From positions 39,814-71,813 of the forward strand of contig JBAPTR010000162.1 in the NCBI GenBank assembly GCA_049282265.1: a stretch of DNA of 32,000 nt, in the 5' to 3' direction. A model generated the notes under the pieces. The model saw only the letters and a list, made by a program, of their open reading frames with translations, did not search any database and was not told the origin of the DNA. Below, piece after piece: positions 1,847 to 16,231 of the stretch. The translations under genes were made by a program, and so were the position numbers. Position 1 is the stretch's first letter, and every line of letters begins with the position of its first letter. This stretch comes from Desulfatiglandaceae bacterium (lineage in GTDB: Bacteria; Desulfobacterota; DSM-4660; Desulfatiglandales; Desulfatiglandaceae).

Positions 1847-3058
1847 ATGAAAGAGAAAAAGACCATCGCCGTTGTGGGAACCTTTGATTCCAAGGGTGAC
1901 GAGCACTTGTTTTTAAAGAAACAGATCGAGGCGCGCGGTTGCAGGGCCCTGACCATCAACATAGGGACAGCAAGGCCCTCCCCTTTTCCCCCTGACCATG
2001 ATCTCTTCTCTGATGTCGTTCTCGGGAAGGATCTTGCGAACAAGGGTCGTGATGAGATGATCCAGGCTGTTATTTCGGCGGCCAGGGAACTGATCCGGGA
2101 AATCTATGGACGGGGCGAGATCCACGGGATCATCTCAGCAGGCGGCGGCACGGGCACCCACCTGGGCACGCGCATCATGCAGGCTCTTCCCATGGGCATC
2201 CCCAAGGTGATGGTCTCCACGGTGGCCTCCCGGGACATGTCGAAGACCGTGGGCACCAAAGACATCACCATGATGCACAGCGTAACGGACATCATGGGGA
2301 TCAACAGCCTGACCGGCGCCGTCCTGGACAAGGCCGCGGCCGCGGTCTCCGCCATGGCCGGGAGCAACTGGAAGAGCGGGGAGCCGAAAAAGCGCATTGC
2401 GCTGACCATGTTCGGGTTCATCACCAGGGCCGCCGAGCAAATCAGAGAGCACCTTGAGGCCCTTGGTTATGAGGTCATTCCCTTTCACGCCAACGGCACC
2501 GGGGGAAATGCCATGGAAGAACTGGCCAGGGAAGGCAGCTTTGACGGAATACTGGATCTCGCCACCCACGAACTGGCCGACGAGCTAAAGGGTGGCTACT
2601 GCAAGGGGATCGGGCCGTTGCGCCTCGAGCCTATCAACGGCAGGACCGTCCCCCGGTTGGTGGTGCCGGGCGGCCTCGACTGCGCTGTCCTGGAGTTCAC
2701 CCGGCAAAACGTCCCCCCGGAGTTCAAGGATCGGAAGGTCTTTTTCTATGATTTCCGTTCGGCCATCCGCCTCAACCTGAAAGAAACGTTCAACCTGGCG
2801 GAACAGGTTGCCGGAAAGCTGAACCGGGGCCCCTCCACCGTCAGGTTGCTCATCCCCCTGGGCGGCTGGTCAGAGGCCGATCGAGAGGGGGGGCCGCTTT
2901 ATGACCCTGATATGCGCGATGCCTTCATAGAAAAATTGAAAGAGAATCTGGCCCCCCAAATCCGTGTCCTGGAAGTGGACAGTCACATCAATGATCCGGC
3001 CTTTACCCAACTGGCATCATCGACGATGCATGAGATGCTCAATAAAAAAGATGGCTGA
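1847..3058 (+). CDS. UPF0261 / Tm-1-like ATP-binding domain protein (paralogue 1)
   Basis: 403-aa ORF with GGAGG 6 nt upstream of the ATG. Paralogous over its full length to 11317..12552, sharing blocks such as GGGTGT...G, PKxMVST/AVSS, TMFG/TQFG, PxGGWS. The architecture matches bacterial UPF0261 proteins as I recall the family. Confidence 0.7.
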   Translation: MKEKKTIAVVGTFDSKGDEHLFLKKQIEARGCRALTINIGTARPSPFPPDHDLFSDVVLGKDLANKGRDEMIQAVISAARELIREIYGRGEIHGIISAGGGTGTHLGTRIMQALPMGIPKVMVSTVASRDMSKTVGTKDITMMHSVTDIMGINSLTGAVLDKAAAAVSAMAGSNWKSGEPKKRIALTMFGFITRAAEQIREHLEALGYEVIPFHANGTGGNAMEELAREGSFDGILDLATHELADELKGGYCKGIGPLRLEPINGRTVPRLVVPGGLDCAVLEFTRQNVPPEFKDRKVFFYDFRSAIRLNLKETFNLAEQVAGKLNRGPSTVRLLIPLGGWSEADREGGPLYDPDMRDAFIEKLKENLAPQIRVLEVDSHINDPAFTQLASSTMHEMLNKKDG

Positions 3059-3067
3059 CGGAACGGA

Positions 3068-4012
3068 TTATTTCCAGTGGTCAAAGATCCGGGACATGAT
3101 GTCCCGCAACCCGTCCCCGGGCTTCTCCTGGGCAATCTTCAGGAGGATATCCACGAAGGCCTGGGCCGGCAGACTGAGGTTCTGGTTTTCCAGGTACGCG
3201 ATACTCACATCCAGATAAATGCTCGGCCCTTCCAGGGGCAAGGTTGCCAGCCTCTTTTCCTGGAGTTCAATTGAAACGGCTTCCCGAACAAGGAACGAAA
3301 CGCCCTCCCCCCGGTGGACGAGTTCCTTTATGAATTCGGCGTTGCTCGTCTCCATCAGGATATCGGGGGTACACTGGTTCCCGGCGAAGAGCGCGTTGAC
3401 CTTTTTTCGTGTCCCCGATCCCAACTCCTTCATGATAATGGGCTCCCGTGCCAGGTCATTGACCGAGATCGCATCCCTTGATGCGAGCGGATGGTCAGGT
3501 GCGAGAATCACCACGAGTTCCTCCTGGCTAAAGGGGATAAAGCGCACATCGGGATTCTCTTCGGCCCTGGCGATGACCGCCACCTCGTTTTTCAGATCCA
3601 CCAGGCTGTGGATCATGTCCGCGGAACTGCCCTCATCCAGGTGTATCTTGATCTGGGGATAGGCCTCGTGGAAATTGGTCACCAGAAAGGGCATGAAGTA
3701 ACGCGCATAGGTCTTGGTGGTTCCCAGCCGTAAGACACCCCGCTTCAGCTCCCGCATCTCCTCGATGACATTTTCAAGGTCCTTTTCGCATGCAAAGATC
3801 CTCTTGGCATAATCGAAGAGCGCCCTGCCCTCCTCGGTCAGGTAGATATTTCTTCCCTTCCTCTTAAAAAGCTTCAGGCTGCATTGCTCTTCAAATCGCT
3901 TGATCTGTGCCGTCACGGCCGGCTGGGTAATGTAAAGCCTTTCAGCGGCCGCCGTGCAGCTGAGATGTTTGGCGGTCATATAGAAGACCCTGAGGTGATG
4001 GAGATTGATCAT
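3068..4012 (-). CDS. LysR-family transcriptional regulator
   Basis: The N-terminal HTH (MINLHHLRVFYMTAKHLSCTAAAERLYITQPAVTAQIKRFEE) is followed by a LysR substrate-binding domain. I place the start at the internal ATG (4012), which gives a canonical LTTR N-terminus, not at the TTG at 4045. The gene is divergent from the pps-like operon. Confidence 0.9.
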   Translation of the reverse strand: MINLHHLRVFYMTAKHLSCTAAAERLYITQPAVTAQIKRFEEQCSLKLFKRKGRNIYLTEEGRALFDYAKRIFACEKDLENVIEEMRELKRGVLRLGTTKTYARYFMPFLVTNFHEAYPQIKIHLDEGSSADMIHSLVDLKNEVAVIARAEENPDVRFIPFSQEELVVILAPDHPLASRDAISVNDLAREPIIMKELGSGTRKKVNALFAGNQCTPDILMETSNAEFIKELVHRGEGVSFLVREAVSIELQEKRLATLPLEGPSIYLDVSIAYLENQNLSLPAQAFVDILLKIAQEKPGDGLRDIMSRIFDHWK

Positions 4013-4104: not shown

Positions 4105-4133
4105 TTGACAGGTCTTTTTATACCGCTCATAAT
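4105..4133 (+). promoter_or_regulatory. candidate sigma70 promoter of the pps-like operon
   Basis: TTGACA (4105-4110), a 17-nt spacer, then CATAAT (4128-4133). This implies a leader of roughly 150 nt before ATG 4292. Confidence 0.4.
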
Positions 4134-4291: not shown

Positions 4292-6154
4292 ATGGCAGAG
4301 GAAAAAGCAGGAAGATTTCCGGATCCGCATGAGTACCAAATTCCACCGGAACTTGAAGGCTGGGAGGAGATGTACCCTTCCCATTACCTTTTTTCGGATC
4401 ACAGGAAGGACTGGGAAAAGGCCCAATTCTGGTACCTGGACAAAATCCATGCACCCGAACCCGTACCCCCGCTGGACATGATTTTTCAGGAGGCCTGGCA
4501 GATCTCACTTTCCCAGTACACGACCAGGGTTTTCTGTATCCCCCCGGCCCAGGGCATAGCCCAGCGGATGGTGGGCTGCTACATGTACATCTGTGCCATC
4601 GCCCCGCCACCTGACGAGATTATAGGAGAGAAGGCCCAGCTCTTTGAAAAGCGGGTGTTCTATGTATTCGAGCACTACGATGAGTTGTGGGACAAGTGGC
4701 TGACAAAATTCAAGGCCCTCGGGGAGGAAATGAAAGCGGTGAGGGTCCCTGCCGAACTGCCGAAATACGTACCCGAAGATGAGGTCCTGCCCGCGCCCAA
4801 AGGCTTTTACGATTCCTACAACGTGATGGAGGCCTTCGATATTGTCGCGAACCAGATGATCAAGGGGTGGCAGTATCATTTTGAGATGCTGAATCTCACC
4901 TATCTTGCCTACCTCATGTTCGGGGACGTGACGAGAAAGCTCTTTCCCGGGATCAGTGAGAGCGCCATCGGCAAAATGGTCGCAGGGGCCTACGTCTCCA
5001 TGTTCCGGCCGGAAGAAGAACTCTGCCGCCTTTCGAGGCTGGCCGTCTCTTCAAGGGGTGTGGCGGATATCCTGAAGAGCGATATCTCCGCGGAACAAAA
5101 AATGGCCGAACTCCAAAAAATCCCCGACGGGAAACACTGGCTTGAAGAATATGACAAGGCAAAGGACCCCTGGTTTTATGTCTCCTGCGGCAGCGGCTGG
5201 TACCATCACGAAGGGAGCTGGCTCACCCAGCCCGACATTCCCTTCAGCTACATCAAGAGCTACGTGGAACGTCTGGAAAACGGGGAAACCATTGAACGGT
5301 CCCTGGATGCCATTGACAAAGAGCGCGACGAAACCGTCAATAAATACAGAGAGCTGATCCGATCGGACGAAGACCGGAAATCCTTTGACGACGCCTACAA
5401 TACCATCCGAACCATCTATCGGTATGCCGAGGACCATCTCTTCTGGGTGGAGCACTGGTTTCACACCATCTGGTACGCCAAGATAAGAAAATTCGGAAAC
5501 CTCCTGGTCAAGAACGATATGATTGATCATGTGGATGATATTTTCATGTTCACCCGCTATGAAATCCCCGAAATGCTCACGGAACTCTCCACCGGCTGGG
5601 CCCTTGGCGTTGATATCCCCTTAAGGGGGAGCTTCTACAAGGCCAAGGCCGAAAAAAGGAGAAAGATACTCGAGGCTGCAGGAAAATGGAACCCCACCCC
5701 GGCCCTCGGTGTCCCTCCGGAAGAGGTGGCGGAACCTTTTACCATTATGCTCTGGGGGGTGACAACCGACCGGGTCAAGGAGTGGCTCGAGGGCATGGGT
5801 GAAGTCAAGGCGCTGGGGGATATCTCCGAGATAAAGGGTTTCGCCTCTTCGGCCGGCACCGCGGAAGGTCCTGCAAGGGTGTTGAAGCTCCTCAAGGAGA
5901 TCGTTGATCTCCAGCCGGGAGAGATCATTGTGTGTCCTTCCACCAACCCCTCCTGGGCCCCTGTCTTTACCAAAATCAAGGGGGCGGTAACCGATATCGG
6001 CGGGCTGACCAGCCACGCGGCCATTGTGTGCCGGGAATACGGCGTGCCGTCCGTGACCGGGACCGGTGTGGCGACAGCCTTGATCAAGACCGGGGATATC
6101 ATCCGCGTGGATGGGGACACGGGCAAGGTGACCATCGTCAAAAGAGCGGGATAG
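4292..6154 (+). CDS. phenylphosphate-synthase alpha-like protein (PEP-utilising enzyme, mobile phosphohistidine domain, no PEP/pyruvate TIM domain)
   Basis: AAGGAGG lies 7 nt upstream of ATG 4292; the track's TTG at 4286 is too close to the RBS. The C-terminus carries the swivelling His-domain motif GGLTSHAAIVCREYGVP. The N-terminal ~480 aa (FPDPHEYQIPPELEGWEEMYP...) resemble PpsA-type proteins as I recall them. Confidence 0.8.
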   Translation: MAEEKAGRFPDPHEYQIPPELEGWEEMYPSHYLFSDHRKDWEKAQFWYLDKIHAPEPVPPLDMIFQEAWQISLSQYTTRVFCIPPAQGIAQRMVGCYMYICAIAPPPDEIIGEKAQLFEKRVFYVFEHYDELWDKWLTKFKALGEEMKAVRVPAELPKYVPEDEVLPAPKGFYDSYNVMEAFDIVANQMIKGWQYHFEMLNLTYLAYLMFGDVTRKLFPGISESAIGKMVAGAYVSMFRPEEELCRLSRLAVSSRGVADILKSDISAEQKMAELQKIPDGKHWLEEYDKAKDPWFYVSCGSGWYHHEGSWLTQPDIPFSYIKSYVERLENGETIERSLDAIDKERDETVNKYRELIRSDEDRKSFDDAYNTIRTIYRYAEDHLFWVEHWFHTIWYAKIRKFGNLLVKNDMIDHVDDIFMFTRYEIPEMLTELSTGWALGVDIPLRGSFYKAKAEKRRKILEAAGKWNPTPALGVPPEEVAEPFTIMLWGVTTDRVKEWLEGMGEVKALGDISEIKGFASSAGTAEGPARVLKLLKEIVDLQPGEIIVCPSTNPSWAPVFTKIKGAVTDIGGLTSHAAIVCREYGVPSVTGTGVATALIKTGDIIRVDGDTGKVTIVKRAG

Positions 6155-6181
6155 GTAAACGCCTCCTCTCCGGCGGCCTGC

Positions 6182-6219
6182 GGGGGTGGGTGAGGGATTT
6201 TTCATTCCCCACCCACCCC
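6182..6219 (+). other. strong GC-rich intercistronic hairpin between the alpha- and beta-like genes
   Basis: GGGGTGGGTG(A)GGGA - tttttcat - TCCCCACCCACCCC gives 14 bp with one bulged A and an 8-nt loop. No U-tract follows. Confidence 0.5.
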
Positions 6220-6288
6220 TTGCCGGAACAACCCGACCCCTCCCGGGGAAGGGACCGTCAGGGTGGAAAGGCATTCAAGGAGCAAGGC

Positions 6289-7359
6289 ATGGATTACGTG
6301 CTGAATTTCAAAAACGTGGACAGGACCTCTCTGCCAGTGGTAGGGGGCAAAAATGCCAGCCTGGGAGAAATGATCAAGACCGGTATTCGCGTGCCGCCGG
6401 GATTCGCCGTCACTACGCAGAGCTACCAGAGTTTCATCACCGCGACGGGCATTCAAGAGGAGATCTTTCACCTCCTCTCCGATCTTGATGTGGATGATAT
6501 GGAAGCGCTCAACGCCGCCAGTGCCGGCATTCAAAAGCTGTTCCTGAAAACCCCCATGATAGGAGAAATCGCAGCGGCCATCGCCTCCGAATATAGACGT
6601 CTCTGTGAAACCTCCAGTCTGAAAAATATCCCCGTTGCGGTTCGATCAAGCGCCACGGCTGAAGACCTTCCAACGGCAAGTTTCGCCGGCCAGCAGGATA
6701 CCTATCTCTGGATTCAGGGAGAAGACGCGGTGGTTCAAAACGTCCAGAAATGCTGGGCAAGCCTTTTTACGCCGAGGGCCATCAGCTACAGGGTCAAAAA
6801 TGGCTTTGCCCACGAAAAGGTCCTGATCAGCATTGGCGTACAGAAGATGGTCAACTCCAAGGCCGCAGGAGTCTTGTTTACCCTCAACCCCACAAACGGG
6901 GACCCGTCCAAGGTGGTCATCGAAGGAAGCTGGGGTCTTGGGGAAACAGTGGTGTCCGGTTCCGTGAACCCGGACAAGTTTGTGGTGGACAAGGTGGTCA
7001 TGGAGACGAATGAAAAAACCATCTCCAAAAAGCATATTGAATGCATTTTTGATCCCCGGAAGGGAACAGTGATTGATGCGGATGTGGCTGAAGACAGACA
7101 AAGGGTTTGCTGCCTCCAGGATAGAGAGGTACTGGAACTGGTTCAGATTGCCAAGCGCATTGAAGACCATTATCGCCGCCCCATGGATGTCGAGTGGGCC
7201 ATCGACCAGGACGTGAATTTTCCGGAAAACGTCTTTATTGTCCAGGCGCGTCCGGAGACGGTCTGGAGCCAGCGCAAAAAGGAACCCCTTATCGGGAAGA
7301 AGAGCGGGTTCCAGCTGCTCATGGAACAGGCCATGAAACGGATCAAGATTCCAGGATAG
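6289..7359 (+). CDS. phenylphosphate-synthase beta-like protein (PEP synthase N-terminal ATP-grasp / nucleotide-binding domain)
   Basis: The start is set at ATG 6289, with AAGGAG 6 nt upstream. The protein begins MDYVLNFKNVDRTSLPVVGGKNASLGEMIKTGIRVPPGFAVT, the classic PEP-synthase/PPDK N-terminal motif. The track's upstream extension (5932-6288) overlaps the previous gene and is Arg/Gly-rich junk. Confidence 0.8.
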   Translation: MDYVLNFKNVDRTSLPVVGGKNASLGEMIKTGIRVPPGFAVTTQSYQSFITATGIQEEIFHLLSDLDVDDMEALNAASAGIQKLFLKTPMIGEIAAAIASEYRRLCETSSLKNIPVAVRSSATAEDLPTASFAGQQDTYLWIQGEDAVVQNVQKCWASLFTPRAISYRVKNGFAHEKVLISIGVQKMVNSKAAGVLFTLNPTNGDPSKVVIEGSWGLGETVVSGSVNPDKFVVDKVVMETNEKTISKKHIECIFDPRKGTVIDADVAEDRQRVCCLQDREVLELVQIAKRIEDHYRRPMDVEWAIDQDVNFPENVFIVQARPETVWSQRKKEPLIGKKSGFQLLMEQAMKRIKIPG

Positions 7360-7497
7360 GCCTGGGATTTCCCAAAGGGCCGTCGCCTCGGGCTCATGGA
7401 GTCCCGGGCAGCAGGATGAAGGTCCCCATTTCCCCGCCATTTCCATGAAATCAGGGGAGAGACTACATCAAAACCAGAATGAGGAGGCTGTATTCTT

Positions 7498-8901
7498 ATG
7501 AAAAGCATGAGAGATTTCATCGCCCAGGCAGAGGCGGAAGGAATGTTGAAGCGGATCAAGGCGGAAGTGGACTGGAACCTGGAACTGTCCCACATTGCCA
7601 AGCTGAACGAAGAAAAGAAGGGACCCGCGCTCCTGTTTGAAAATGTGAAGCATTACAAGTCGCCCGTGATTACCAGCGTCTGTACCACCACGGAGAGGCT
7701 GGCCCTGATCATGGGGGAGCCCAGGGATTCGACACTTGTGGACCTGATGAGGGTATGGGTGGAAAAGCACGACAACGCGATTCCCCCCAGATATGTTGAT
7801 GAGGCCCCCTGCAAGGAAAATATCATGACGGGAGATGATATTGATCTCTTCAAATTCCCGGCACCCAAATTCTATCCCCTGGACGGGGGTCGGTTTTTTG
7901 GCACGGCCCACTTTGTTGTGACCAAGGACCCGGAGTCGGGATGGGTCAATGTAGGAACCTACCGGCTGCAGTTGCTGGACAAAAACCACCTGGGCACCCA
8001 GTTCATCAGGGGCAAGCATTCCGACATCATGCTCAAAAAATACCAGGCCATGGGCAAGCCCATGCCGGTGTGTGTGGTGGTGGGATGCGATCCCCTGCTC
8101 TTCCTCATGGGGGCGGCACGCCTCTCGGCATTCGAGTCCGAATATGATTTCGCCGGCTCCATCCGTGGCGAACCCATAGAGGTGGTCAAAGCCGAGACCA
8201 ATGACCTTCCTGTGCCGGCCACCGCCGAGATCGTCGTGGAAGGAGAAGTGGATGCGGACAAGTTCATGGAAGAGGGTCCTTTTGGTGAATACACAGGATA
8301 TTATTCCGGCGTCGGCACGGACCCGAGAAATTTTATCGATGTCAAGTGCGTGACCTACAGGAACAACCCCATATTCTGGGGCACTACCGTGGGCAGAGCG
8401 GTTACGGATACCCACATGACCATGGCCCTTACTTATGGCGCTACCCTGTGGCAGCAGCTTGTGACCATGAAGATTCCGGGGATCAAGGCCGTCTACTGTC
8501 CACCCGAAGGATCCGGAAGGTTTCTGGCCATCATCTCCGTGAAGCAGATGTATCCCGGGCATGCCGACCAGGTCCTCACTGCGGCCATTTCAACGGAAAT
8601 GGGTGCCTATGGGCTCAAGACCGTCATCGTGGTGGATGAAGACATCGACCCCTGGGACATCCCGCGGGTCATGTACGCCCTCAGTTTCCGGTTTCAGCCC
8701 AACCGGTCACAGGTCATCAAGCGGGGGAGATCCACGCCGCTGGATCCATCCCTGCCCCTTGATTCCAGGCACATAACAGGGAGACTCCTCCTGGATGCCA
8801 CGATTCCCTATGACTGGAAGGAAAAGCCCATCCCCATCGTGCTGGATCCGGACCTTGTCAAGAAGATCCAGGGGCGGTGGTCGGAACTGGGGCTTGATTA
8901 G
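7498..8901 (+). CDS. UbiD-family prFMN-dependent (de)carboxylase, phenylphosphate-carboxylase-subunit-like
   Basis: 467 aa with GAGGAGG 10 nt upstream. UbiD hallmarks include ...GTYRLQ..., MPVCVVVGCDP and EEGPFGEYTGYY. Confidence 0.9.
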   Translation: MKSMRDFIAQAEAEGMLKRIKAEVDWNLELSHIAKLNEEKKGPALLFENVKHYKSPVITSVCTTTERLALIMGEPRDSTLVDLMRVWVEKHDNAIPPRYVDEAPCKENIMTGDDIDLFKFPAPKFYPLDGGRFFGTAHFVVTKDPESGWVNVGTYRLQLLDKNHLGTQFIRGKHSDIMLKKYQAMGKPMPVCVVVGCDPLLFLMGAARLSAFESEYDFAGSIRGEPIEVVKAETNDLPVPATAEIVVEGEVDADKFMEEGPFGEYTGYYSGVGTDPRNFIDVKCVTYRNNPIFWGTTVGRAVTDTHMTMALTYGATLWQQLVTMKIPGIKAVYCPPEGSGRFLAIISVKQMYPGHADQVLTAAISTEMGAYGLKTVIVVDEDIDPWDIPRVMYALSFRFQPNRSQVIKRGRSTPLDPSLPLDSRHITGRLLLDATIPYDWKEKPIPIVLDPDLVKKIQGRWSELGLD

Positions 8902-9047
8902 GATCGAATAGTATCAGCGAATAACCAAATTCATTCACAACGTGGACGTTGCTCCTACAGCTCATTTCATGATCAATCTCCGTAGGAGCGACCTCATGGT
9001 CGCGAACATGGGTTTAGACACGTTCAACACTTGCAGGAGAATAAATC

Positions 9048-9575
9048 ATGCCACAAGACAACATGCTGGAGGGCAAGAAAGTCCTCATTGTGGACGACGA
9101 ACCGGATGTGCTGGCCACGCTGGAAGAGCTGCTGTCCATGTGTGGAATCACAAGAGCCTCGAATTTCGAGGAGGCCAAAGCTCTCCTGGAGACCCGGGAA
9201 TTCCACGTGGCGGTTCTGGATATCATGGGAGTCGACGGATACGGGCTCCTGGAAATAGCACGGCAAAGAGGCATCCCTGCCGTGATGCTCACGGCCCATG
9301 CCTTTACACCGGACAACCTCGTCAAATCCATCAAGGAGGGAGCCGCCAGCTATATTCCCAAGGAGGAAATCGCAGGGATCGCGGATTTCCTGGTGGATGT
9401 GCTCAATGCGAAGGCCGCGAAAAAAGACCCCTGGGAGGCCTGGCAACGGAAGCTGCCCGCCTCCTACTTTGCGAGGAGATGGGGCGCCGCGTGGGACGGT
9501 GTTGATAAGGAATTCTGGGAAAAATTTAGAGCGGGTATAAAGGACAGAGGATCTAAGTCCAAAGAATCCGAATAA
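9048..9575 (+). CDS. stand-alone response-regulator receiver protein (CheY-like) with a short C-terminal extension
   Basis: KKVLIVDDEPDVL...VAVLDIMGVDGYGLL...VMLTAHAF...K are the receiver-domain acidic pocket, phospho-Asp and T/K positions. The ~55-aa tail shows no recognisable HTH. AGGAGA RBS. Confidence 0.85.
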   Translation: MPQDNMLEGKKVLIVDDEPDVLATLEELLSMCGITRASNFEEAKALLETREFHVAVLDIMGVDGYGLLEIARQRGIPAVMLTAHAFTPDNLVKSIKEGAASYIPKEEIAGIADFLVDVLNAKAAKKDPWEAWQRKLPASYFARRWGAAWDGVDKEFWEKFRAGIKDRGSKSKESE

Positions 9576-9602
9576 TAAAAGCAAATTGTAGGGAGGGATG
9601 AT

Positions 9603-11264
9603 GTGAAACCTATTCGTTATGATCAAGCACAGGTAGAACAATATTTGCAGCGCGGATATTGGGATAAAACGATTCTGCCTGATTACTGGGACAGGAATGC
9701 CAGGCTATGGCCCGACAGAGAGGGACTTGTGGACTCCACAGGCAGGAGGCTTACCTGGAAAGAAGCAGCGCTGAAAATAGACAGAATTGCCTTTGCTATA
9801 ATCAAAGACATGAAACTGAAAAGGGATGAAAGGCTGATGGTTCAGCTGCCCAACTGCGTGGAACAGGTTCTGGTACGCCTTGCCTGCGAAAAGGCAGGCG
9901 TCTTGTCTATTCCCGAAATGACGACCTTCCGTTTGACGGAGTTGAAAGACATTGCCGGTCGGACTGATGCCGCGGGTATTGTAATACCGAAAGTGTACCG
10001 AAAATTCAACCATTATGATATGGCGAAAGAACTCCAGGCCCATGTGCCAAGCCTCAAACATATTATAATTGCGGACGAGGACGTTCCCGAGGGCTGCATC
10101 TCTCTTCAAGAAATCATGAAACGCGCTTATGAGAAGCAATACGATCTCATTGAGCTCAAAGCAAGAAATCTTGATGCGATAGAAGAGATCGGGTTTCTGA
10201 TTACGACTACGGGGACCACTGGTCTTCCCAAGCTCATTGAACACCGGATTGCGGCCCGTGAGATATGGACAGCAAAATCACACGTGAGAAACTGGCAACT
10301 CGGTCCTGACGATTGTGTCCTCGCCATAGCGCCCCTGGCCGGGGCCGCAGGCGGCACACCTGCCTATGTTACCGCCCCGGTAGGCGGAGCCAAGATTGCG
10401 TTGGAGTATCAATATCGTGGTGAGGAAACTCTTGAATTCATGATGAAAGAAAAAGTCACGGTCATTGCCGTGGTCCCTACCCAATTGGCAAGGTTACTCG
10501 AGTTGCCACTGGTAAAATATGATTTATCATCCCTGCGCATCATAAAAACCGCCGGGGGATATTTGCCGCCGCCTTTGGCCAAAGAAGCCGAAGAACGTTT
10601 TGGCTGTCCCATACTCGGCACCTATGGTACGCAGGATACGGGTTCAATATCAGGCGTGCCCATAAATGCCTCCAAGGAACAGCGGTACACAACAGTAGGC
10701 AGATTGCACCCTGGAATTGAGATAAAAATTCTGGATGATTCCGGACACCCGGTGAAAAAGGGCGAGGTCGGGACCCTTTGGTTCATAGGTCCCGGAAACT
10801 CTATCGGCTACTACAGAGACCTTGAAAAAACAATGACCGAGGCATTTGATAAGGATGGCTTTGCCACTCCGGGTGACCTTGTCACACTATTGGACGATGG
10901 TTATCTCAAAATAATGGGGAGGAAAAAAAATATTATCATCCGGGGCGGACAGAATATCTACCCGAGAGAGATAGAGGACTACCTCGTCACCCATCCCGAC
11001 GTCACAAACGCCGCCGTAGTTCCCATGCCTGATCCGGAAATGGGTGAACGTGCTTGTGCCTTCATTACATTTAAAGAAGGGAAACAATTTACGTTTGAGG
11101 AGATGATTGAATTTCTGAAGGGCAAGAAAATCGCCCCGTTTAAATTGCCCGAGAGGTTGGAAGTCTTGGATGCCCTTCCTCTCGTGGGTGAAAGCGGAAA
11201 GATAGATAACAAGGCCATGGTTCAAATGATCACTCAAAAGCTCAAGTTGGAAGGGAGCCTATAA
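9603..11264 (+). CDS. AMP-forming aryl/acyl-CoA ligase (adenylate-forming superfamily)
   Basis: GTG start with GGGAGGG 5 nt upstream. It carries the P-loop-like TTTGTTGLPK, GTYGTQDTG, and GDL...GYLKIMGRKKNIIIRGGQNIYPREIE motifs. Confidence 0.85.
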   Translation: MKPIRYDQAQVEQYLQRGYWDKTILPDYWDRNARLWPDREGLVDSTGRRLTWKEAALKIDRIAFAIIKDMKLKRDERLMVQLPNCVEQVLVRLACEKAGVLSIPEMTTFRLTELKDIAGRTDAAGIVIPKVYRKFNHYDMAKELQAHVPSLKHIIIADEDVPEGCISLQEIMKRAYEKQYDLIELKARNLDAIEEIGFLITTTGTTGLPKLIEHRIAAREIWTAKSHVRNWQLGPDDCVLAIAPLAGAAGGTPAYVTAPVGGAKIALEYQYRGEETLEFMMKEKVTVIAVVPTQLARLLELPLVKYDLSSLRIIKTAGGYLPPPLAKEAEERFGCPILGTYGTQDTGSISGVPINASKEQRYTTVGRLHPGIEIKILDDSGHPVKKGEVGTLWFIGPGNSIGYYRDLEKTMTEAFDKDGFATPGDLVTLLDDGYLKIMGRKKNIIIRGGQNIYPREIEDYLVTHPDVTNAAVVPMPDPEMGERACAFITFKEGKQFTFEEMIEFLKGKKIAPFKLPERLEVLDALPLVGESGKIDNKAMVQMITQKLKLEGSL

Positions 11265-11316
11265 TTTCATCAGTCTGATGGACCAGGTGATTGTAGCGGA
11301 AATCACAGCATAAAAT

Positions 11317-12552
11317 ATGAGAAAAGATATCATCATTGCGGTTATGGCAGAGGAAAAGTGGGAAGAAGCGGAGTTCCTGCGCCGGCAAATTGAATCCTTC
11401 GGGCAAAGGGCCAGGATTATGGATATAAGTTTGCTGCAAGAACCCCCGGGGACCTGCCATATTGCCCGGGAAGAGGTTATCCGGGCCAGCGGCCGAATGC
11501 CTGACGAAGTGGCACTCGTATCGGATAGAGGGAAACGGATGCCCATCATGGTGGAAGGGGCCAGGAAAAAGGCACTCGATCTCTACTCCAAGGGAAATCT
11601 TGCGGGCATAATAGGCATAGGTGGAACTACAGGGACCCAAATGGGAACCGATATTATGAAGGTCCTCCCTTTTGGAGTCCCAAAATTGGCTGTTTCGAGC
11701 ACGGCATCAATTCCGGGACTTGCCACAAGATACATGGGGACAAAGGACATTACCCTCATGCACACGGTAGTGGAATTTACAGGGCTTAATGACTATATGA
11801 AAAATGTTCTGGCCAGGGCCGCCGGCGCTATTTGCGGAATGGTGGAAGGCTCTGCCCGTTTTCCCGTTTCCACGTCCAATAAGAGGGAAAGGCCCTTCAT
11901 TGCCATGACACAATTTGGGCCTTGCGAGGAATGTGCCGTAAACGTCAGGAAGCAGCTTGAACAGAAAGGCTACCAGATTGTGGCTTTTTCGGCCTCAGGT
12001 TCCGGCGACAGGGCCATGGAGGAAATGATAGAAAAACAGGATATGTTCCGTGCCGTAATCGATCTTGCCCCGGGTGGAGTGGGTGAAGAGCTGCTTGGTT
12101 TTGCAAGGGCGGCAGGTTCCACCCGATTGGAGGCCGCAGGCCAAAAAGGGATACCGCAAATTATCGCCACGAGCGGAGTCAATTTCGGCTCCCCATTCAA
12201 GCGAAGGTATAAGCCTGAATATGAATTTCGAAAAAAGTATGACTACGATGCAGCCCGCACCTTCATGAGGTTATCTCATGAAGAACTGACTCTGATCGCT
12301 CTCACCATTGCAGATAAGCTCAACAAGGCACAGGGTCCGGTAAAGGTAGTAGTCCCCATTGGTGGCTGGTCGTCGGTTGACAAGAGAGGATCTTCCTTCT
12401 ACGATGGAGTAGCAGACAGCGTATTCGTTAAGGCCCTTGAAAACCGACTGAGGCCGGATATCGAGATCACGAAAGTTGACGCAGACCTGGAAACTCCTGA
12501 ATTCGCCGGGGCGGTGGTAAACGCTGTTCTTGATATCTTGAGAAATAAATAG
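11317..12552 (+). CDS. UPF0261 / Tm-1-like ATP-binding domain protein (paralogue 2)
   Basis: 411 aa, colinear with 1847..3058. Its stop TAG (12550-12552) overlaps the GTG (12552) of the next gene as TAGTG. Confidence 0.7.
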   Translation: MRKDIIIAVMAEEKWEEAEFLRRQIESFGQRARIMDISLLQEPPGTCHIAREEVIRASGRMPDEVALVSDRGKRMPIMVEGARKKALDLYSKGNLAGIIGIGGTTGTQMGTDIMKVLPFGVPKLAVSSTASIPGLATRYMGTKDITLMHTVVEFTGLNDYMKNVLARAAGAICGMVEGSARFPVSTSNKRERPFIAMTQFGPCEECAVNVRKQLEQKGYQIVAFSASGSGDRAMEEMIEKQDMFRAVIDLAPGGVGEELLGFARAAGSTRLEAAGQKGIPQIIATSGVNFGSPFKRRYKPEYEFRKKYDYDAARTFMRLSHEELTLIALTIADKLNKAQGPVKVVVPIGGWSSVDKRGSSFYDGVADSVFVKALENRLRPDIEITKVDADLETPEFAGAVVNAVLDILRNK

Positions 12553-12947
12553 TGGAATTTACAATCACCACCAGCAAGGGACATTATGATCTGGAAGCAG
12601 CGGTCAGATCTGTCGGGAAAGATCTGCTTGTGGCTATCTGGGGCGGGGAGCAGCCCCACATCGGCGCGACGGCGGTTGCCCAGCCAAGACCGAGCCTGAA
12701 GGATCCCGAGAGGGTCAGCGCAACCGCATCGATATTCTGCCTTCTGGGACACAAGGAAGATGATCTCGCGAAGGCCGTGGCGGAGATCCTGGCGGCCGCT
12801 CTGAATACGACTGTGGTGGTAACCGCCGGCATTCACTGGGACAACCTGGATGCTGAAGGGATCAGCAGGGTCCTCCAAAACAGCGAGATTCTGGTTGACC
12901 TGATTCTGGAGCAAATCGGAACCCTATCCTCCCGTGACGCCGGATGA
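12552..12947 (+). CDS. LpdD-like small protein (putative prenylated-FMN chaperone / UbiD accessory subunit)
   Basis: 131 aa. The motifs LLVAIWGGEQPHIGATAV and VVVTAGIHWDNL match the GG..PHIG and TAGIH blocks I recall from Lactobacillus plantarum LpdD. It sits directly upstream of ubiX. Confidence 0.6.
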   Translation: MEFTITTSKGHYDLEAAVRSVGKDLLVAIWGGEQPHIGATAVAQPRPSLKDPERVSATASIFCLLGHKEDDLAKAVAEILAAALNTTVVVTAGIHWDNLDAEGISRVLQNSEILVDLILEQIGTLSSRDAG

Positions 12948-12969
12948 GAGGCGGAAAGGCGCTACACGC

Positions 12970-13542
12970 ATGACAAAACGAATCGTTATCGGCATCGCGG
13001 GGGCGAGCGGCGTGATTTACGGCGTCCGGATGCTCCGATTGCTCCAGGGCAAGGGTTTTGAAATCCATCTCATCGTATCCGAAGCCGGCGCAAGAAACCT
13101 TGAGATTGAAACCGGTTTTGACCTGGATCAGGTGAGGGCCCTGGCCGACCATGTGTACGATAATCGTGATATGGCCGCCTCCCTTGCGAGCGGTTCATTC
13201 CTCACGGAGGGAATGGTGGTCATTCCCTGCACAATCAAGACCCTGTCCGGGATCGCCAATTCCTATACGAACAACTTGATGGTAAGGGCCGCTGACGTGA
13301 CACTGAAAGAGAAACGAAAGCTGGTCCTGGTGGTCCGGGAAACCCCTCTTCACAAAGGACATTTGAGGTTAATGACCATGGCGGCTGATATGGGTGCTCA
13401 TATCCTGCCACCTGTCCCGTCTTTTTACCATAAACCCGAGACCATTGAAGACATCCTGGATCAGACCATCGGAAAGATTTTCGATTACCTCTCAATAGAT
13501 CATAATCTGTTCAAAAGGTGGCAGAGTGAAGGGCAGCGATAA
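12970..13542 (+). CDS. ubiX: flavin prenyltransferase UbiX
   Basis: MTKRIVIGIAGASGVIYGVRMLRLL...SGSF...IPCTIKTLSGIA...RAADVTLKEKRKLVLVVRETPLH.GHLR...PPVPSFYH is near-colinear with E. coli UbiX. An alternative GTG start at 12934 would overlap the LpdD-like stop. Confidence 0.92.
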   Translation: MTKRIVIGIAGASGVIYGVRMLRLLQGKGFEIHLIVSEAGARNLEIETGFDLDQVRALADHVYDNRDMAASLASGSFLTEGMVVIPCTIKTLSGIANSYTNNLMVRAADVTLKEKRKLVLVVRETPLHKGHLRLMTMAADMGAHILPPVPSFYHKPETIEDILDQTIGKIFDYLSIDHNLFKRWQSEGQR

Positions 13543-13604: not shown

Positions 13605-13938
13605 TCACATCGTGCTTTGACATTGGACTTTTTGACTGATCTCTTCTGCAGCCTGCCTTGTGCTCCTGATCACCATCTCCATTTTCTCCTCATTTACGCC
13701 TGTCTTGAATCCAACAGCCCAGATAGCGGATGGAATCTGATTCCAGCCCCTTATGGGCGCCGCCACGGCCCATACACCTGAAATATACTCCTCATAAATC
13801 AGTGGCGTATACCCTTTCCCTTGCCTGCGGTATCTCTTCAAAATATTGTTGTGGATTCGTTGTGCTATTCTCGGTGAAATGGGAAATTTCCATTTCCATG
13901 ATCATTTTTGTGCCATCGTTCATCTCGCTGAACATCAT
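13605..13938 (-). pseudogene. iclR remnant (internal deletion plus frameshift)
   Basis: The 78-aa ORF (..YEEYISGVWAVAAPIRGWNQIPSAIWAVGFKTGVNEEKMEMVIRSTRQAAEEISQKV) parallels the C-terminus of the intact IclR at 16303..17073. The remnant start codon (13916-13914) reads ATG GCA CAA AAA TGA. A 1-nt insertion (GATTTATGAGGAG vs GATTACGAGGAG) also breaks the frame. Confidence 0.75.
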
Positions 13939-14038
13939 TTGATTTTTCCATCCTTAAAGATCTACTATCAACAAGGCAAACAGTTACACCAGAATTGATA
14001 TAACATGTTATTATCCATATCTTTCATCGTTTTTTTGC

Positions 14039-14066
14039 TTGACACTATTTTTTCTTATGTTATCTT
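14039..14066 (+). promoter_or_regulatory. candidate promoter of metF (copy A)
   Basis: TTGACA, a 16-nt spacer ending in TGT, then TATCTT (extended -10-like). The same architecture is conserved in copy B. Confidence 0.4.
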
Positions 14067-14173
14067 ATGAATTATATGGTAGGTTCTTCATCCTGAACAG
14101 ACCAGATTATTACTCTTTTTCTACGGTCTTTATAAAGCTGACTTCAGCAAAAGCGGGGCGGAATGGATTACAG

Positions 14174-15109
14174 ATGATGGAGACAAAGACACCCAGTAAG
14201 CTGGAAAAAATCCTTGCGACAGGACATGTAGCCGTAACATCCGAATGCGGCCCTCCCAGGGGAAGTGATCCCGGAATCATTATCAAGAAGGCCGAATTGA
14301 TCAAGGACCATGTTGATGCCATTAATGTCACGGATAATCAGACAGCCATGACAAGGCTGTGCAGTCTGGCCTCAGTCGCTCACCTCAAGCTAATAGGCCT
14401 TGAGCCGGTCCTCCAGATGGTTGTGAGAGATCGGAATCGGATCGCACTCCAAAGCGATATCCTGGGGGCAGCCTCTTTTGACATTCATAATATGCTCTGT
14501 CTGTCCGGAGACCATCAAAAATTCGGCGACTGTCCTGACGCCCAGAATGTATATGACATCGATTCCATGCAGCTCATTCGCATGGCCAGGCACATGCGGG
14601 ATGAGGGAAAATTTGTGGGAGGAGATGAGATCAACCGACCACCCCGCATGTTCGTGGGTGCTGCGGCCAACCCTTTTGCCGACCCGTTTGAAATCCGCAT
14701 CCCTCGTCTCGCTAAGAAAATCGCGGCAGGGGCCGAGTTCATTCAAACCCAGTGTATCTATAATGTGGACAAATTTGAATTGTGGATGAAACAAGCGCGG
14801 GACCGGGGCCTCCACGAAAAGGTCTACATACTGGCAGGGATAACCCCGATAAGATCAGCCGGCATGGCAAGATACATGAAAAACCGCGTCCCCGGCATGG
14901 ATGTCCCGGATGAAACCATCAAGAGAATGAGCGGCGTATCTGCAAAGAAACAACCTGAGGAAGGGATTAATATTTGTGTGGAAACCATCCAAAGGCTGAA
15001 AGAGGTTGAAGGGGTCAGGGGGTTCCATATCATGGCAATAGAGTGGGAAGAAAAAGTCCCGGAGATCGTGGAAAGAAGCGGGCTTTATCCGAGACCGAAG
15101 ATAAGCTGA
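14174..15109 (+). CDS. metF: methylenetetrahydrofolate reductase, acetogen/anaerobe MetF type
   Basis: The start is set at ATG 14174 (MMETKTPSKLEKILATGHVAVTSECGPPRG...). The protein shows a MetF-like TIM-barrel pattern (INVTDNQ..., LCLSGDH, FVGAAANPF, GAEFIQTQ). The track's TTG 14039 extension is AT-rich promoter sequence. Confidence 0.8.
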   Translation: MMETKTPSKLEKILATGHVAVTSECGPPRGSDPGIIIKKAELIKDHVDAINVTDNQTAMTRLCSLASVAHLKLIGLEPVLQMVVRDRNRIALQSDILGAASFDIHNMLCLSGDHQKFGDCPDAQNVYDIDSMQLIRMARHMRDEGKFVGGDEINRPPRMFVGAAANPFADPFEIRIPRLAKKIAAGAEFIQTQCIYNVDKFELWMKQARDRGLHEKVYILAGITPIRSAGMARYMKNRVPGMDVPDETIKRMSGVSAKKQPEEGINICVETIQRLKEVEGVRGFHIMAIEWEEKVPEIVERSGLYPRPKIS

Positions 15110-15162
15110 ATTGTAATCCTCTAAAATTGTACGCGAATAGCGGTGGCAGGAGATGAAAACCC

Positions 15163-15549
15163 ATGTCCTATTTTGTGGTAAACGAAAACTGTAATGGATG
15201 CCTGGCGTGCGTGGAGAACTGTCCCGCAAACGCATTGAGATTTAAAGACACAGACGAAAACCGTACCATTTTGCATAATATGGCCAAATGCGTCAGGTGT
15301 GCCAATTGCTGGCGAGTCTGTCCTCAGCAGGCCATTGAATTCCAGCACTTTCTGGAAAACGAGTGGGACGAAGTCAAGTCCCTGGACCTGGTCCATTGCA
15401 GGGTTTGCGGTGAGCCCATTTACACCACAGACCTTGAAAAGACCTTGACCGGGAAAACAGGCAGTGAGATTGATGCCCTTTGCCCAAAACACAGGGAATT
15501 GGATTTCGCTGCCAGGCAGGCACTGGTCCCTTTCAGGAGGGCCGCATGA
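15163..15549 (+). CDS. 2x[4Fe-4S] ferredoxin-domain protein with a Cys-rich C-terminal extension
   Basis: CNGCLACVENCP and CVRCANCWRVCP motifs, then CRVCG...CPKH. AGGAGA RBS. Confidence 0.75.
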   Translation: MSYFVVNENCNGCLACVENCPANALRFKDTDENRTILHNMAKCVRCANCWRVCPQQAIEFQHFLENEWDEVKSLDLVHCRVCGEPIYTTDLEKTLTGKTGSEIDALCPKHRELDFAARQALVPFRRAA

Positions 15550-15562
15550 AGAGAGGTAAAAG

Positions 15563-16231
15563 ATGATCGTAGCTGATCTGAAACCTGTGGGTGAGATAGC
15601 CGAATCAATATCGCCATTTCAAAAAGTCTCCATAGTGGCCTGTGGAGGGTGTGTGTCCGTATGCCTCACCGGTGGCGCCAGTAGCGCCGATACCCTGGCA
15701 AGGGAACTCTCTCATCCCAGACATTACAAAGAGCGCCCGCCGATCCTCGCTACCACAACCATCCAGAGACAGTGTGAAAAAGATTTCGTTACGGCTTACC
15801 TCAACCTCCCCCGTGACACAGACGCCATTCTGTCAATGGCATGCGGTGCAGGAGTCCAGACCCTGGCTGAGATTTTCGGCAAGGTCCCTATTCTCCCGGC
15901 CCTCAATACCAGCTTCCTTGGATCGTTGGACGAGCCGGGGGTGTGGCGCGAAAAATGCCAGGGGTGTGGAAGCTGTGTGCTGGCCTTTACCGGGGGTATA
16001 TGCCCTGTTACCCGATGTGCCAAGCACCTCCTCAATGGTCCCTGCGGCGGTTCAAGTAACGGCAAGTGCGAAATAAGCAAAGACGTCGATTGTGCCTGGC
16101 AGTTGATCATAGACCGGCTCAAGGCACTCGGCAGACTCAATGACTATGAAAAAATCTTTCCCATCAAGGACTGGTCATCAGACCGGGGGGGAGGCCCCCG
16201 GTCAATGCAGTTCTCCAGTAAAAAAACCTGA
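15563..16231 (+). CDS. metV: MetV-like protein (methylenetetrahydrofolate reductase C-terminal domain family)
   Basis: CPVTRCAKHLLNGPCGGSSNGKCEISKDVDCAW matches the MTHFR_C/MetV signature (..NGPCGG...G.CE...). It follows metF, as in the MetFV systems of anaerobes. Confidence 0.75.
   Translation: MIVADLKPVGEIAESISPFQKVSIVACGGCVSVCLTGGASSADTLARELSHPRHYKERPPILATTTIQRQCEKDFVTAYLNLPRDTDAILSMACGAGVQTLAEIFGKVPILPALNTSFLGSLDEPGVWREKCQGCGSCVLAFTGGICPVTRCAKHLLNGPCGGSSNGKCEISKDVDCAWQLIIDRLKALGRLNDYEKIFPIKDWSSDRGGGPRSMQFSSKKT

Follow-up and report, generated by a model that had tools for sequence, protein, structure and literature searches.

The closest described counterpart of the locus analysed here is the phe cluster, H567DRAFT_02049-02059, of Desulfatiglans anilini (Ahn 2009; Xie & Muller 2018; Xie 2020). 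This species and our source metagenome-assembled genome (MAG) are members of one bacterial family. The cluster encodes Pps-alpha (615 aa), Pps-beta (358 aa), a single Ppc-beta (468 aa), UbiX, a receiver protein (175 aa), a UPF0261 protein (403 aa) and a 'DHB-AMP ligase' (552 aa), and its products are much more abundant on phenol (PMC6114531; PMC7500099 Table_1). Specifically, the receiver (02050) increases 6- to 9-fold on phenol and the UPF0261 protein (02057) is phenol-specific in the proteome (PMC7500099 Table_1). Extracts of D. anilini form phenylphosphate from phenol and ATP (PMC6114531; PMC7500099 Table_1); attempts to demonstrate phenylphosphate carboxylase in such extracts did not succeed.

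Comparison of the window (the whole stretch of 32,000 nucleotides analysed here) with the phe cluster disclosed the same protein families, with lengths of 620, 356, 467, 175, 403 and 553 aa for the counterparts of the six proteins whose sizes are given above, and UbiX in both loci. The window ligase shares its size and annotation class with the phenol-induced D. anilini ligase 02058, and neither cluster contains pps-gamma, ppc-alpha, ppc-gamma or ppc-delta. Judged from family, size and gene content, and not from alignment, the window proteins are putative orthologues of the phe proteins. Cultured D. anilini thus already has this unusual set of parts, and the pps-ppcB cluster of Geobacter metallireducens likewise has ppcB alone, without ppcA or ppcC (PMC6114531), so the architecture that the preliminary description called non-canonical is not new. 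The two Desulfatiglandaceae loci nevertheless differ: the window has LpdD, a second UPF0261 gene and another gene order, while the phe cluster has hcrABC and a phenylacetate-CoA-ligase-type 4-hydroxybenzoate ligase (02049).

The ppsABC-ppcBDAG clusters of Thauera aromatica and Azoarcus sp. KH32C share with the window a split dikinase followed by a PpcB-type UbiD and UbiX. Identities to the Azoarcus proteins are 41.7% for PpsA, 52.7% for PpsB, 49.6% for PpcB and 51.3% for UbiX, and the PpsB and UbiX values lie close to the distance between the D. anilini phe and T. aromatica proteins (42/38/49/56% identity; PMC6114531). In contrast to these clusters, the window lacks PpsC (CBS), PpcA, PpcG, PpcD, a second free UbiD and any DUF120 or NUDIX genes for cofactor supply. 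The receiver, two UPF0261 proteins, LpdD and a DhbE-like ligase are present instead, and the regulator is of the LysR type rather than a sigma-54 regulator. The earlier assignment as an ATP-dependent aryl phosphorylation and carboxylation cluster distinct from the Thauera/Azoarcus type holds.

Layout and conservation of the locus

Every element that had been named for positions 4292-13542 was found at its place (Table 1). The genes for the PpsA-like protein, PpsB, UbiD, the receiver-only protein, the ligase, UPF0261, LpdD and UbiX occupy one strand, 3' of the divergent LysR gene, and adjacent operon genes are separated by <=150 bp. The second UPF0261 gene is located upstream of this main set. 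The LysR reading frame could extend to 4045. A predicted promoter, resting on a consensus match only, falls within the LysR-PpsA intergenic region.

Table 1. Features of the locus, with positions counted from the first nucleotide of the window.
Feature	Position	Strand	Basis
UPF0261 type a (403 aa)	1847..3058	+	PF06792 + PF23189
LysR-family transcriptional regulator	3068..4012	-	HTH_1 + LysR_substrate domains; divergent from operon
Best sigma-70-like promoter match (predicted)	4105..4133	+	TTGACA-17-CATAAT, 11/12 positions; consensus match only
Phenylphosphate-synthase alpha-like subunit (PpsA-like, 620 aa)	4292..6154	+	PF00391, NF006153
Phenylphosphate-synthase beta-like ATP-grasp subunit (PpsB, 356 aa)	6289..7359	+	PF01326 PPDK_N, E 9e-121
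PpcB-type UbiD-family prFMN-dependent carboxylase, single copy	7498..8901	+	TIGR02724, all three UbiD domains
Receiver-only response-regulator protein (175 aa)	9048..9575	+	PF00072 at residues 12-106
Aryl-acid adenylating enzyme (553 aa)	9603..11264	+	AMP-binding + AMP-binding_C
UPF0261 type b (411 aa), paired with ligase	11317..12552	+	PF06792 + PF23189
LpdD-type prFMNH2-binding chaperone (131 aa)	12552..12947	+	PF21758, E 2e-37
UbiX flavin prenyltransferase (190 aa from ATG 12970)	12970..13542	+	NF004685

Relatives of PpsA were detected in 333 species genomes. The best 80 of the 333, all of them Desulfobacterota-type MAGs, have the synteny in common, with PpsA orthologues 78-87% identical. 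Among those GTDB species loci whose length allowed a decision, synteny was observed for PpsB in 61/64, UbiD in 46/51, UPF0261 in 24/26, UbiX in 23/26, and the receiver and the ligase in 21/26 each, and an opposite-strand LysR gene stands upstream of PpsA in 35 of 41. PpsA, PpsB and UbiD remain adjacent in 46 of 51 loci. The arrangement is far beyond chance, and the operon is real and strongly conserved.

Dikinase pair, UbiD enzyme and flavin supply

A Pfam search of the PpsA-like protein gave the PEP-utilizers mobile domain alone (residues 543-613), with the swivel histidine, His575, in GGLTSH; the PEP-utilizers_C TIM barrel was absent. The protein thus has its substrate-binding region at the N-terminus and the phosphohistidine swivel domain at the C-terminus, and its calculated mass of 70.9 kDa agrees with the ~70 kDa expected of the alpha subunit of phenylphosphate synthase. 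PpsB, the ATP-grasp subunit, is encoded apart from it. Both observations bear out what had been read from the open reading frames.

The PpsA-like protein passes the broad subfamily model NF006153 (845 against a cut-off of 578) and stays below the canonical PpsA equivalog NF006152 (590 against 723), on which Azoarcus PpsA scores 1300; no specific PRK08296 equivalog was passed. Dikinases of other aromatic pathways are about as near to it as canonical PpsA, at 45.6% (haloarchaeal) and 39.8% identity (a PpsA-like protein of a Rhodococcus plasmid, not shown to be HpeH). The acetovanillone dikinases HpeHI/AcvAB are likewise PpsAB-like split enzymes for a phenolic OH, but their partners are a biotin-dependent carboxylase and a phosphatase, whereas the partner in the window is UbiD. 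The PpsA clade forms a separate 50%-identity cluster, with the next full-length cluster just 45% identical.

The swivel subunit also bears on whether the locus could serve to activate aniline, as phenylphosphoamidate, in the manner of the D. anilini ani cluster. There, as in the window, a pair formed by a UPF0261 protein (03869, 411 aa, the length of our type b) and an acyl-CoA synthetase (03870, 549 aa) adjoins the split dikinase Pas-alpha/beta and Ppc-beta; all are aniline-induced, and Pas-alpha/beta also accepts phenol. Pas-alpha, however, has 554 aa with His512, whereas the window protein (620 aa, His575) resembles Pps-alpha (615 aa, His571). UbiX is present in the window and in the phe cluster but not in ani, which acts on aniline and depends on a further Ppc-beta encoded in a different cluster. 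In addition, no Hcr-like deamination reductase lies near the window genes, and their very wide distribution better fits a common natural substrate. Together, these features make aniline activation very unlikely.

The single UbiD protein contains the motifs NVGTYR and EGPFGEYTGYY, and the R/E/E motifs are conserved. It passes TIGR02724 phenyl_P_beta (509 against 469) and does not reach TIGR02723 phenyl_P_alpha (217 against 565), in agreement with its identities of 49.6% to Azoarcus PpcB, 32.7% to PpcA and 30.9% to the ORF7 UbiD. With respect to the clades of characterised phenylphosphate synthase and carboxylase, membership in which would make this simply the known phenol pathway, UbiD thus falls marginally inside (509 against 469) and PpsA outside (590 against 723).

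UbiX scores 261 bits against the NF004685 cut-off of 188, and 242 on TIGR00421; its reading frame opens at GTG 12934. The start of LpdD overlaps the stop codon of UPF0261 type b, and the protein matches the LpdD structures 8pzh, 8p4w and 8po5 at E ~6e-7. LpdD functions as a prFMNH2-binding chaperone (PMC10865409). With UbiX and LpdD both encoded, the proposal of on-site prFMN supply stands, as does the reported set of UbiD, CoA ligase, LpdD-like protein and UbiX, all matched by domains and profiles.

UbiX, UbiD and the LpdD chaperone encoded together are also the signature of the LpdBCD/VdcBCD hydroxyarylic acid decarboxylases, and the NCBIfam matches include VdcC and VdcB. The three proteins could in principle be a reversible Vdc/Lpd/Shd-type decarboxylase working in the decarboxylating direction, uncoupled from the kinase genes. 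Against this, UbiD scores 342 against 650 on the VdcC model and UbiX 239 against 290 on the VdcB model, while the PpcB cut-off is passed, and the window is without a VdcD-type small subunit. The trio is furthermore coupled to a dikinase. PpsA, PpsB and UbiD are adjacent in 46/51 loci and all genes are placed on one strand with short gaps, and we regard an uncoupled decarboxylase as extremely improbable.

To search for canonical subunits, we used the annotated proteins of Azoarcus sp. KH32C (NC_020548.1) in tblastn. PpsC, PpcD and PpcG gave no match in the window at E<=1 or in ~88 related loci at E<=1e-3, and PpcA matched the single UbiD alone in both, so that a second alpha-type UbiD is absent there. 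The small ORFs of the window had no NCBIfam match. The reported lack of PpsC, a second UbiD and gamma/delta-like subunits is thereby confirmed. Geobacter, by comparison, is reported by Schleinitz et al. 2009 to retain ppsC and a nearby ppcD. The PpsC-type gamma subunit is stimulatory and non-essential (PMC6114531).

Receiver, ligase and UPF0261 proteins

The receiver-only and UPF0261 genes proved to be real and conserved. The receiver protein has no output domain in Pfam and ends in a conserved Trp/Phe-rich tail; its DD/D/T/K catalytic residues are invariant across 47 orthologues, and its gene stands directly 3' of UbiD in 28/44 loci. The adenylating enzyme is probably a hydroxybenzoate-CoA ligase, as suggested by its best PDB matches, salicylate-AMP ligase 5wm2 (E 3e-66) and DhbE 1md9 (E 3e-62), although it reaches no NCBIfam equivalog cut-off. 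Read by eye, the ligase lacks His-Asn-Tyr, the substrate motif of DhbE.

Both UPF0261 proteins match MarK (Saro_1862, PDB 9MPY), a UPF0261-family kinase for aromatic compounds from Novosphingobium aromaticivorans, at E ~1e-50 (type a, 2.5e-49; type b, 1.5e-50), and type a also matches Tm-1 in the PDB (E 1.4e-50). MarK and a biotin carboxylase work together in the aerobic breakdown of acetovanillone. The ATP-site residue Lys16 and the phenol-binding residue Gly195 of MarK are kept in both, while His219, which binds the phenolic oxygen, is found in type a alone and is replaced by Ser in type b and in 6/6 of its close orthologues. Among type-a orthologues, Lys16 is present in 29/31 and Gly195 and His219 in 31/31. 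Type a is an ATP-binding protein of the Tm-1/MarK family and may be an ADP-forming kinase for phenolics; a UPF0261 gene lies 5' of LysR in 16/41 loci. Type b and the ligase diverge in step with each other (r 0.72), and the relatives closest by UbiD have another ligase/UPF0261 subtype, giving two distinct cassette subtypes.

Proposed substrate and reaction

Taken together, the locus is probably a Desulfatiglans/Desulfobacterota-type operon under LysR control, through which an uncultured relative of sulfate reducers phosphorylates phenol or a very similar phenolic with ATP and then carboxylates it. By analogy with the Thauera aromatica enzyme, the ATP-grasp subunit PpsB would phosphorylate His575 in the PpsA swivel domain at the expense of ATP, and PpsA would in turn phosphorylate the oxygen of the phenolic substrate, yielding aryl phosphate, AMP and phosphate. 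The single PpcB-type UbiD could then replace the proton para to the phosphate-activated oxygen by CO2 to give 4-hydroxybenzoate, with UbiX presumably making the prenylated flavin and LpdD handing it to UbiD. The adenylating enzyme may then activate this acid as a CoA thioester, which would enter the benzoyl-CoA pathway.

The substrate had been considered fully open; we favour phenol because the D. anilini phe and ani and the G. metallireducens clusters already show such an architecture. In agreement with phenol, UbiD scores above the PpcB equivalog cut-off, the gene content corresponds to that of the phenol-induced D. anilini cluster and synteny is kept across dozens of species. Several observations do not fit as readily: the PpsA score below the canonical cut-off and its similar nearness to other-pathway dikinases, and a ligase without the DhbE motif or an NCBIfam equivalog. 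Furthermore, xanthine-dehydrogenase-family (4-hydroxybenzoyl-CoA reductase) genes, which the D. anilini cluster has, are absent from the annotated ORFs of the window and from the two related loci inspected (L086 and L088). Phenylphosphate carboxylase activity with phenol has also never been demonstrated, nor the carboxylation step reconstituted, for this cluster type. The conserved receiver, UPF0261 and ligase genes may supply what is missing.

The same chemistry could instead serve another phenolic that is widespread in marine sediments; catechol, hydroquinone, cresols, alkylphenols and hydroxy-acetophenones are examples. This would be consistent with the separate PpsA cluster, its equidistance from canonical PpsA and dikinases of other aromatic pathways, the failure to pass a specific PRK08296 equivalog, the two cassette subtypes, the lack of hcr genes nearby and the very wide spread of the clade over 333 species genomes. 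We nonetheless consider such a substrate unlikely: UbiD scores as a PpcB equivalog and the parts list is that of a phenol-induced cluster. Finally, the ~80% conservation of PpsA between orders speaks for a single substrate retained throughout, and against a variety of them.

Split dikinase and UbiD enzyme

The best-supported reading of our comparisons is that the operon, which runs from the PpsA-like gene to UbiX, would serve phenol activation of the Desulfatiglans type. By analogy with Thauera aromatica biochemistry and Desulfatiglans anilini proteomics, the split dikinase would make an aryl phosphate, the PpcB-type prFMN enzyme would carboxylate it to 4-hydroxybenzoate, and the adenylating enzyme would form the CoA ester. 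UbiX and LpdD would supply and load the cofactor for UbiD (LpdD function: PMC10865409). The eight genes lie on the plus strand with gaps of 150 bp or less between neighbors, and a terminator scan of the intergenic gaps within the operon found no convincing terminator. Rfam and tRNA scans of the window gave no matches. The gene description in the preliminary description was accurate and the feature is real, as borne out by domains, motifs, and family cut-offs.

Coordinates of the operon and neighboring features in the window
Feature	Position	Strand	Length (aa)	Basis
UPF0261_a	1847-3058	+	403	ORF listing, family scans
LysR	3068-4012	-		ORF listing, family scans
Promoter-like match (candidate)	4105-4133			Consensus match, 11/12 positions; top match in LysR-PpsA gap
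PpsA-like	4292-6154	+	620	ORF listing, family scans
PpsB-like	6289-7359	+	356	ORF listing, family scans
UbiD	7498-8901	+	467	ORF listing, family scans
Receiver-only protein	9048-9575	+	175	ORF listing, family scans
AMP-binding ligase	9603-11264	+	553	ORF listing, family scans
UPF0261_b	11317-12552	+	411	ORF listing, family scans
LpdD	12552-12947	+		ORF listing, family scans
UbiX	12970-13542	+		ORF listing, family scans
Duplicated segment, first copy	13605-14426
Truncated IclR	13605-13938	-
MetF, ferredoxin-like protein, MetV (DUF5981)	14174-16231
Intact MetF	14174-15109
Duplicated segment, second copy	16303-17602
Intact IclR	16303-17073
Truncated MetF, 5' copy	17297-17602
HdrA-like protein (two ORFs), HdrC-like protein	17649-21262
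AOR with 4Fe-4S partner	21596-24130
AOR	21596-23536
EutA-like reactivase homologue, then 481-aa protein	24316-27268		486; 481
Reductive-dehalogenase homologue	29157-30626

As the canonical reference we used a cluster located by a tblastn search of plasmids, namely the phenol cluster annotated on pAZKH, a plasmid of Azoarcus sp. KH32C, with the gene order sigma-54 regulator, ppsA, ppsB, CBS-protein gene, ppcB, ppcD, ppcA, ppcG, UbiD, UbiX, DUF120, NUDIX, and AMP-binding. PpsA and PpsB are 41.7% and 52.7% identical to their Azoarcus counterparts. As first described, PpsA has a swivel domain and no TIM barrel was found; residues 543-613 form its sole domain, a PEP-utilizer mobile domain in which the His of GGLTSH is residue 575, and the separate ATP-grasp subunit, PpsB, is a stand-alone PPDK_N protein. 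An AlphaFold prediction of PpsA with 34 close homologues (mean pLDDT 54, pTM 0.48) was too poor for a fold search.

PpsA passes the broad subfamily model NF006153 (845, cut-off 578), as do haloarchaeal and Rhodococcus homologues, and falls below the cut-offs of NF006152 (590 versus 723; canonical PpsA reaches 1300 bits) and of the Rhodococcus-type model NF006150 (560 versus 650). Its distance from canonical PpsA is about the same as from the haloarchaeal dikinases (45.6%) and those of Rhodococcus (39.8%), and the genes beside these encode a dioxygenase or P450 as well as phosphatases. The substrate can therefore not be settled from the dikinase alone, and a phenolic substrate other than phenol is the likeliest of the rival explanations; the assignment to phenol is carried mostly by the partner of PpcB type and the parallel with D. 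anilini. The two split pairs in question are located on megaplasmids, that of Natribaculum luteum (L095, 8944-11973) and pRB98 of Rhodococcus oxybenzonivorans (L096, 7835-10797). Their neighbors encode a Rieske dioxygenase or a P450, along with phosphatases of the HAD, HD, or metallophosphoesterase kind, a setting that resembles phenolic "phosphate protecting group" pathways of aerobes.

UbiD carries the motifs NVGTYR and EGPFGEYTGYY, which are common to PpcB, PpcA, and the third UbiD of Azoarcus. It scores 509 on the PpcB equivalog TIGR02724 (cut-off 469; canonical PpcB, 1105), lies below the cut-offs of the PpcA and VdcC models, and is 49.6% identical to PpcB, 32.7% to PpcA, and 30.9% to the extra UbiD. 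A plain decarboxylase is the least likely of the rivals. LpdD matches Pfam PF21758 and LpdD crystal structures, and UbiX exceeds its NCBIfam cut-off and is 51.3% identical to Azoarcus UbiX.

The lack of a PpsC-like gene, a second UbiD, and small Ppc subunits was confirmed by tblastn with the Azoarcus proteins against the window and about 88 related loci. The CBS protein, PpcD, and PpcG had no match in the window (E<=1) or in those loci (E<=1e-3), so that their absence is a constant of the cluster type rather than an accident of the window, and the only match to the PpcA query was the single UbiD gene. Small ORFs in the gaps were rejected as PpcG or PpcD for want of family matches, and those at 13605-13938 are pieces of a truncated IclR copy.

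Distribution and the D. anilini clusters

With each GTDB species represented by one genome, a scan recovered PpsA relatives in 333 genomes. The best 80 of these are 78-87% identical, all are metagenome-assembled genomes (MAGs), and most are labeled Desulfobacterales, Desulfatiglandales, or "Deltaproteobacteria". The dikinase is very highly conserved, at about 80% identity across orders. In a search of 1.84 billion cluster representatives the clade formed one 50%-identity cluster, and the next full-length relatives outside it were at most 45% identical. Mapping of the window proteins onto the related loci showed that the gene order is kept in most of them. Counted over loci long enough to judge, PpsB is conserved in 61/64, UbiD in 46/51, the divergent LysR in 35/41, UPF0261 in 24/26, UbiX in 23/26, the receiver and the ligase each in 21/26, and LpdD in at least 16/26. 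The comparison adds that the Desulfatiglans-type module is very widespread and that the UPF0261 proteins, the receiver-only protein, and the DhbE-like ligase belong to it as much as UbiX does. Unlike nearly all loci, the complete-genome MAG CP070652.1 (L057, 10001-21857) has an 80%-identical PpsA followed by no recognizable PpsB or UbiD.

D. anilini is a cultured member of the same family, studied by Xie & Muller 2018 (PMC6114531) and Xie et al. 2020 (PMC7500099). Its phenol (phe) cluster, H567DRAFT_02049-02059, encodes a phenylacetate-CoA-ligase-type ligase, a 175-aa "response regulator", Pps-beta (358 aa), Pps-alpha (615 aa, His571), three Hcr subunits, UbiX, a 403-aa UPF0261 protein, Ppc-beta (468 aa), and a 552-aa "2,3-dihydroxybenzoate-AMP ligase" whose function is given as unknown (PMC6114531, PMC7500099). 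The architecture had been put forward as non-canonical, but every named part is already present in this published, phenol-induced cluster; the window cluster belongs to a cluster type already described and does not represent a new architecture, and by itself it holds no new chemistry. The window proteins are probably orthologous to the phe proteins, as judged from family, size, gene content, and taxonomy rather than sequence alignment. P0164 and P0131 were rejected as D. anilini counterparts, given their unrelated genomic contexts.

The last of four abundance columns in the D. anilini proteome table was read as the phenol culture, from the paper's Ppc-beta2 peak on phenol. On that reading, the phe UPF0261 protein is all but confined to phenol (0, 5e7, and 5e7 versus 2.5e9), the phe ligase rises 15-19x on phenol, and the receiver rises 6-9x (PMC7500099). 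The aniline cluster encodes Pas-beta (353 aa), a 411-aa UPF0261 protein, an acyl-CoA synthetase (549 aa), Pas-alpha (554 aa, His512), and one Ppc-beta (PMC6114531, PMC7500099). Its UPF0261 protein was detected in the first two columns only, read as the aniline and 4-aminobenzoate cultures (PMC7500099). Aniline as the substrate, to which this related gene set would also point, ranks below another phenolic and above plain decarboxylation; in the D. anilini work, aniline conversion in vitro required two Ppc-beta proteins from different clusters.

Phenol activation in D. anilini leaves two questions: how a sulfate reducer, living on very little energy, meets a cost of up to four ATP equivalents for activating phenol, which the authors called unclear, and how carboxylation proceeds without alpha, gamma, and delta subunits (PMC6114531). 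Extracts showed phenylphosphate synthase at no more than 0.52 nmol/min/mg, attempts to detect phenylphosphate carboxylase failed, and the authors took the absent ppc-gamma to point to "a different catalytic mechanism"; Geobacter metallireducens has a ppc-beta homologue only (PMC6114531).

Accessory proteins

The first activity of a UPF0261 protein was described in 2025 for Novosphingobium MarK, which phosphorylates acetovanillone and other phenolics, converting ATP to ADP (PMC12624787). Neither D. anilini paper came up in a full-text search for "UPF0261", so the protein appears undiscussed there under that name. Both UPF0261_a, encoded upstream of LysR, and UPF0261_b, encoded beside the ligase, match the MarK structure 9MPY (about E 1e-50). 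MarK residues 10-403 were rebuilt from the printed alignment, checked against the paper's residue numbers, and compared with 70-odd UPF0261 proteins from related loci. In type a, ATP-site Lys16 is kept in 29/31 orthologues, and the two residues that contact the phenolic oxygen in MarK, Gly195 and His219, in all 31. Type b keeps Lys16 and Gly195, with Ser at position 219 in 6/6 close orthologues and in 14/18 members of the other subtype. UPF0261_a, with its conserved His219, may be an ADP-forming phenol kinase, which would halve the ATP cost relative to AMP-forming PpsAB.

The nearest solved relatives of the ligase in the PDB are aryl-acid adenylating enzymes, namely salicylate-AMP ligase and DhbE. 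No call of 2,3-dihydroxybenzoate or salicylate specificity was made: at the position of the DhbE substrate motif, which we take to be His-Asn-Tyr, the ligase reads Gly-Ala-Ala by eye, unaligned. Judging from sequence divergence, the ligase and UPF0261_b behave as a two-gene cassette. Their pairwise divergences are each other's best correlate (r 0.72), and the three loci closest by UbiD (L007, L017, and L062; 91-92%) carry a different ligase/UPF0261 subtype (46-48% identity). The cassette may act on an aromatic acid or its CoA ester. At L090 (10001-18894), where pps and ubiD genes are absent, a UPF0261 protein 66% identical to UPF0261_a has as neighbors an AMP-binding ligase, a TRAP transporter, and a second ligase (553 aa), indicating that the pairing recurs outside the phenol-type cluster. 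In three Desulfatiglandales-type loci (L086/L046, 16793-17422; L058; L060), a low-molecular-weight phosphotyrosine-phosphatase-family gene (PF01451) lies between ligase and UPF0261_b; it could encode an aryl-phosphate phosphatase linked to the cassette.

In the receiver, the acidic pocket, phospho-acceptor Asp, Thr, and Lys are invariant among 47 orthologues, and the aromatic-rich tail is conserved. Neither the window nor the annotated related loci contain a histidine kinase gene. The receiver gene directly follows UbiD in 28/44 loci, the position held by ppcD behind ppcB in Azoarcus. Receiver and HAD active sites resemble each other, and the protein may take the phosphoryl group from the aryl phosphate onto its Asp, replacing the HAD-type delta subunit. 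The size-matched receiver of D. anilini (02050) appears, from our reading of the proteome table, about as abundant on phenol as catabolic enzymes (PMC7500099).

We consider it unlikely that the accessory genes are the missing catalytic parts of a distinct, cheaper phenol carboxylation in strict anaerobes, with UPF0261_a as kinase, the receiver in place of the delta phosphatase, and the cassette acting on the acid or its CoA ester. If true, this would bear both on the lack of reconstituted phenylphosphate carboxylase activity from these bacteria and on the way in which sulfate reducers cover the cost of activating phenol. Anoxic sediments commonly contain phenol and related phenolics, as products of fermentation and of pollution. 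The conserved accessory genes of this enzyme system offer direct experiments, made concrete and cheap by the MarK work identifying UPF0261 as a phenolic kinase fold.

Genes downstream of the operon

A segmental duplication (80-93% identity) follows the operon. The truncated IclR copy stands directly after UbiX and the truncated MetF copy before the HdrA-like genes, with intact IclR and MetF both between them; in L007 and L017 the order is simply UbiX, IclR(-), MetF. The MetF, ferredoxin-like, MetV, HdrA, and HdrC set is presumably the methylene-tetrahydrofolate reductase complex of Wood-Ljungdahl-type anaerobes. The tungsten-type aldehyde:ferredoxin oxidoreductase (AOR) was rejected as a BamB-type benzoyl-CoA reductase (Pyrococcus furiosus AOR, 312 bits; BamB 4z3w, 215 bits, partial). 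An AOR with its ferredoxin partner likewise borders the phenol-type clusters of L068 (80% identical) and L088. The 481-aa protein has no Pfam or NCBIfam match, and homologues 56-58% identical lie beside the cluster in L012 and L023. The reductive-dehalogenase homologue scores 178 bits on TIGR02486 (cut-off 160) and, by eye, shows two Cys-rich, Fe-S-like motifs and an N-terminus that is hydrophobic and probably spans the membrane.
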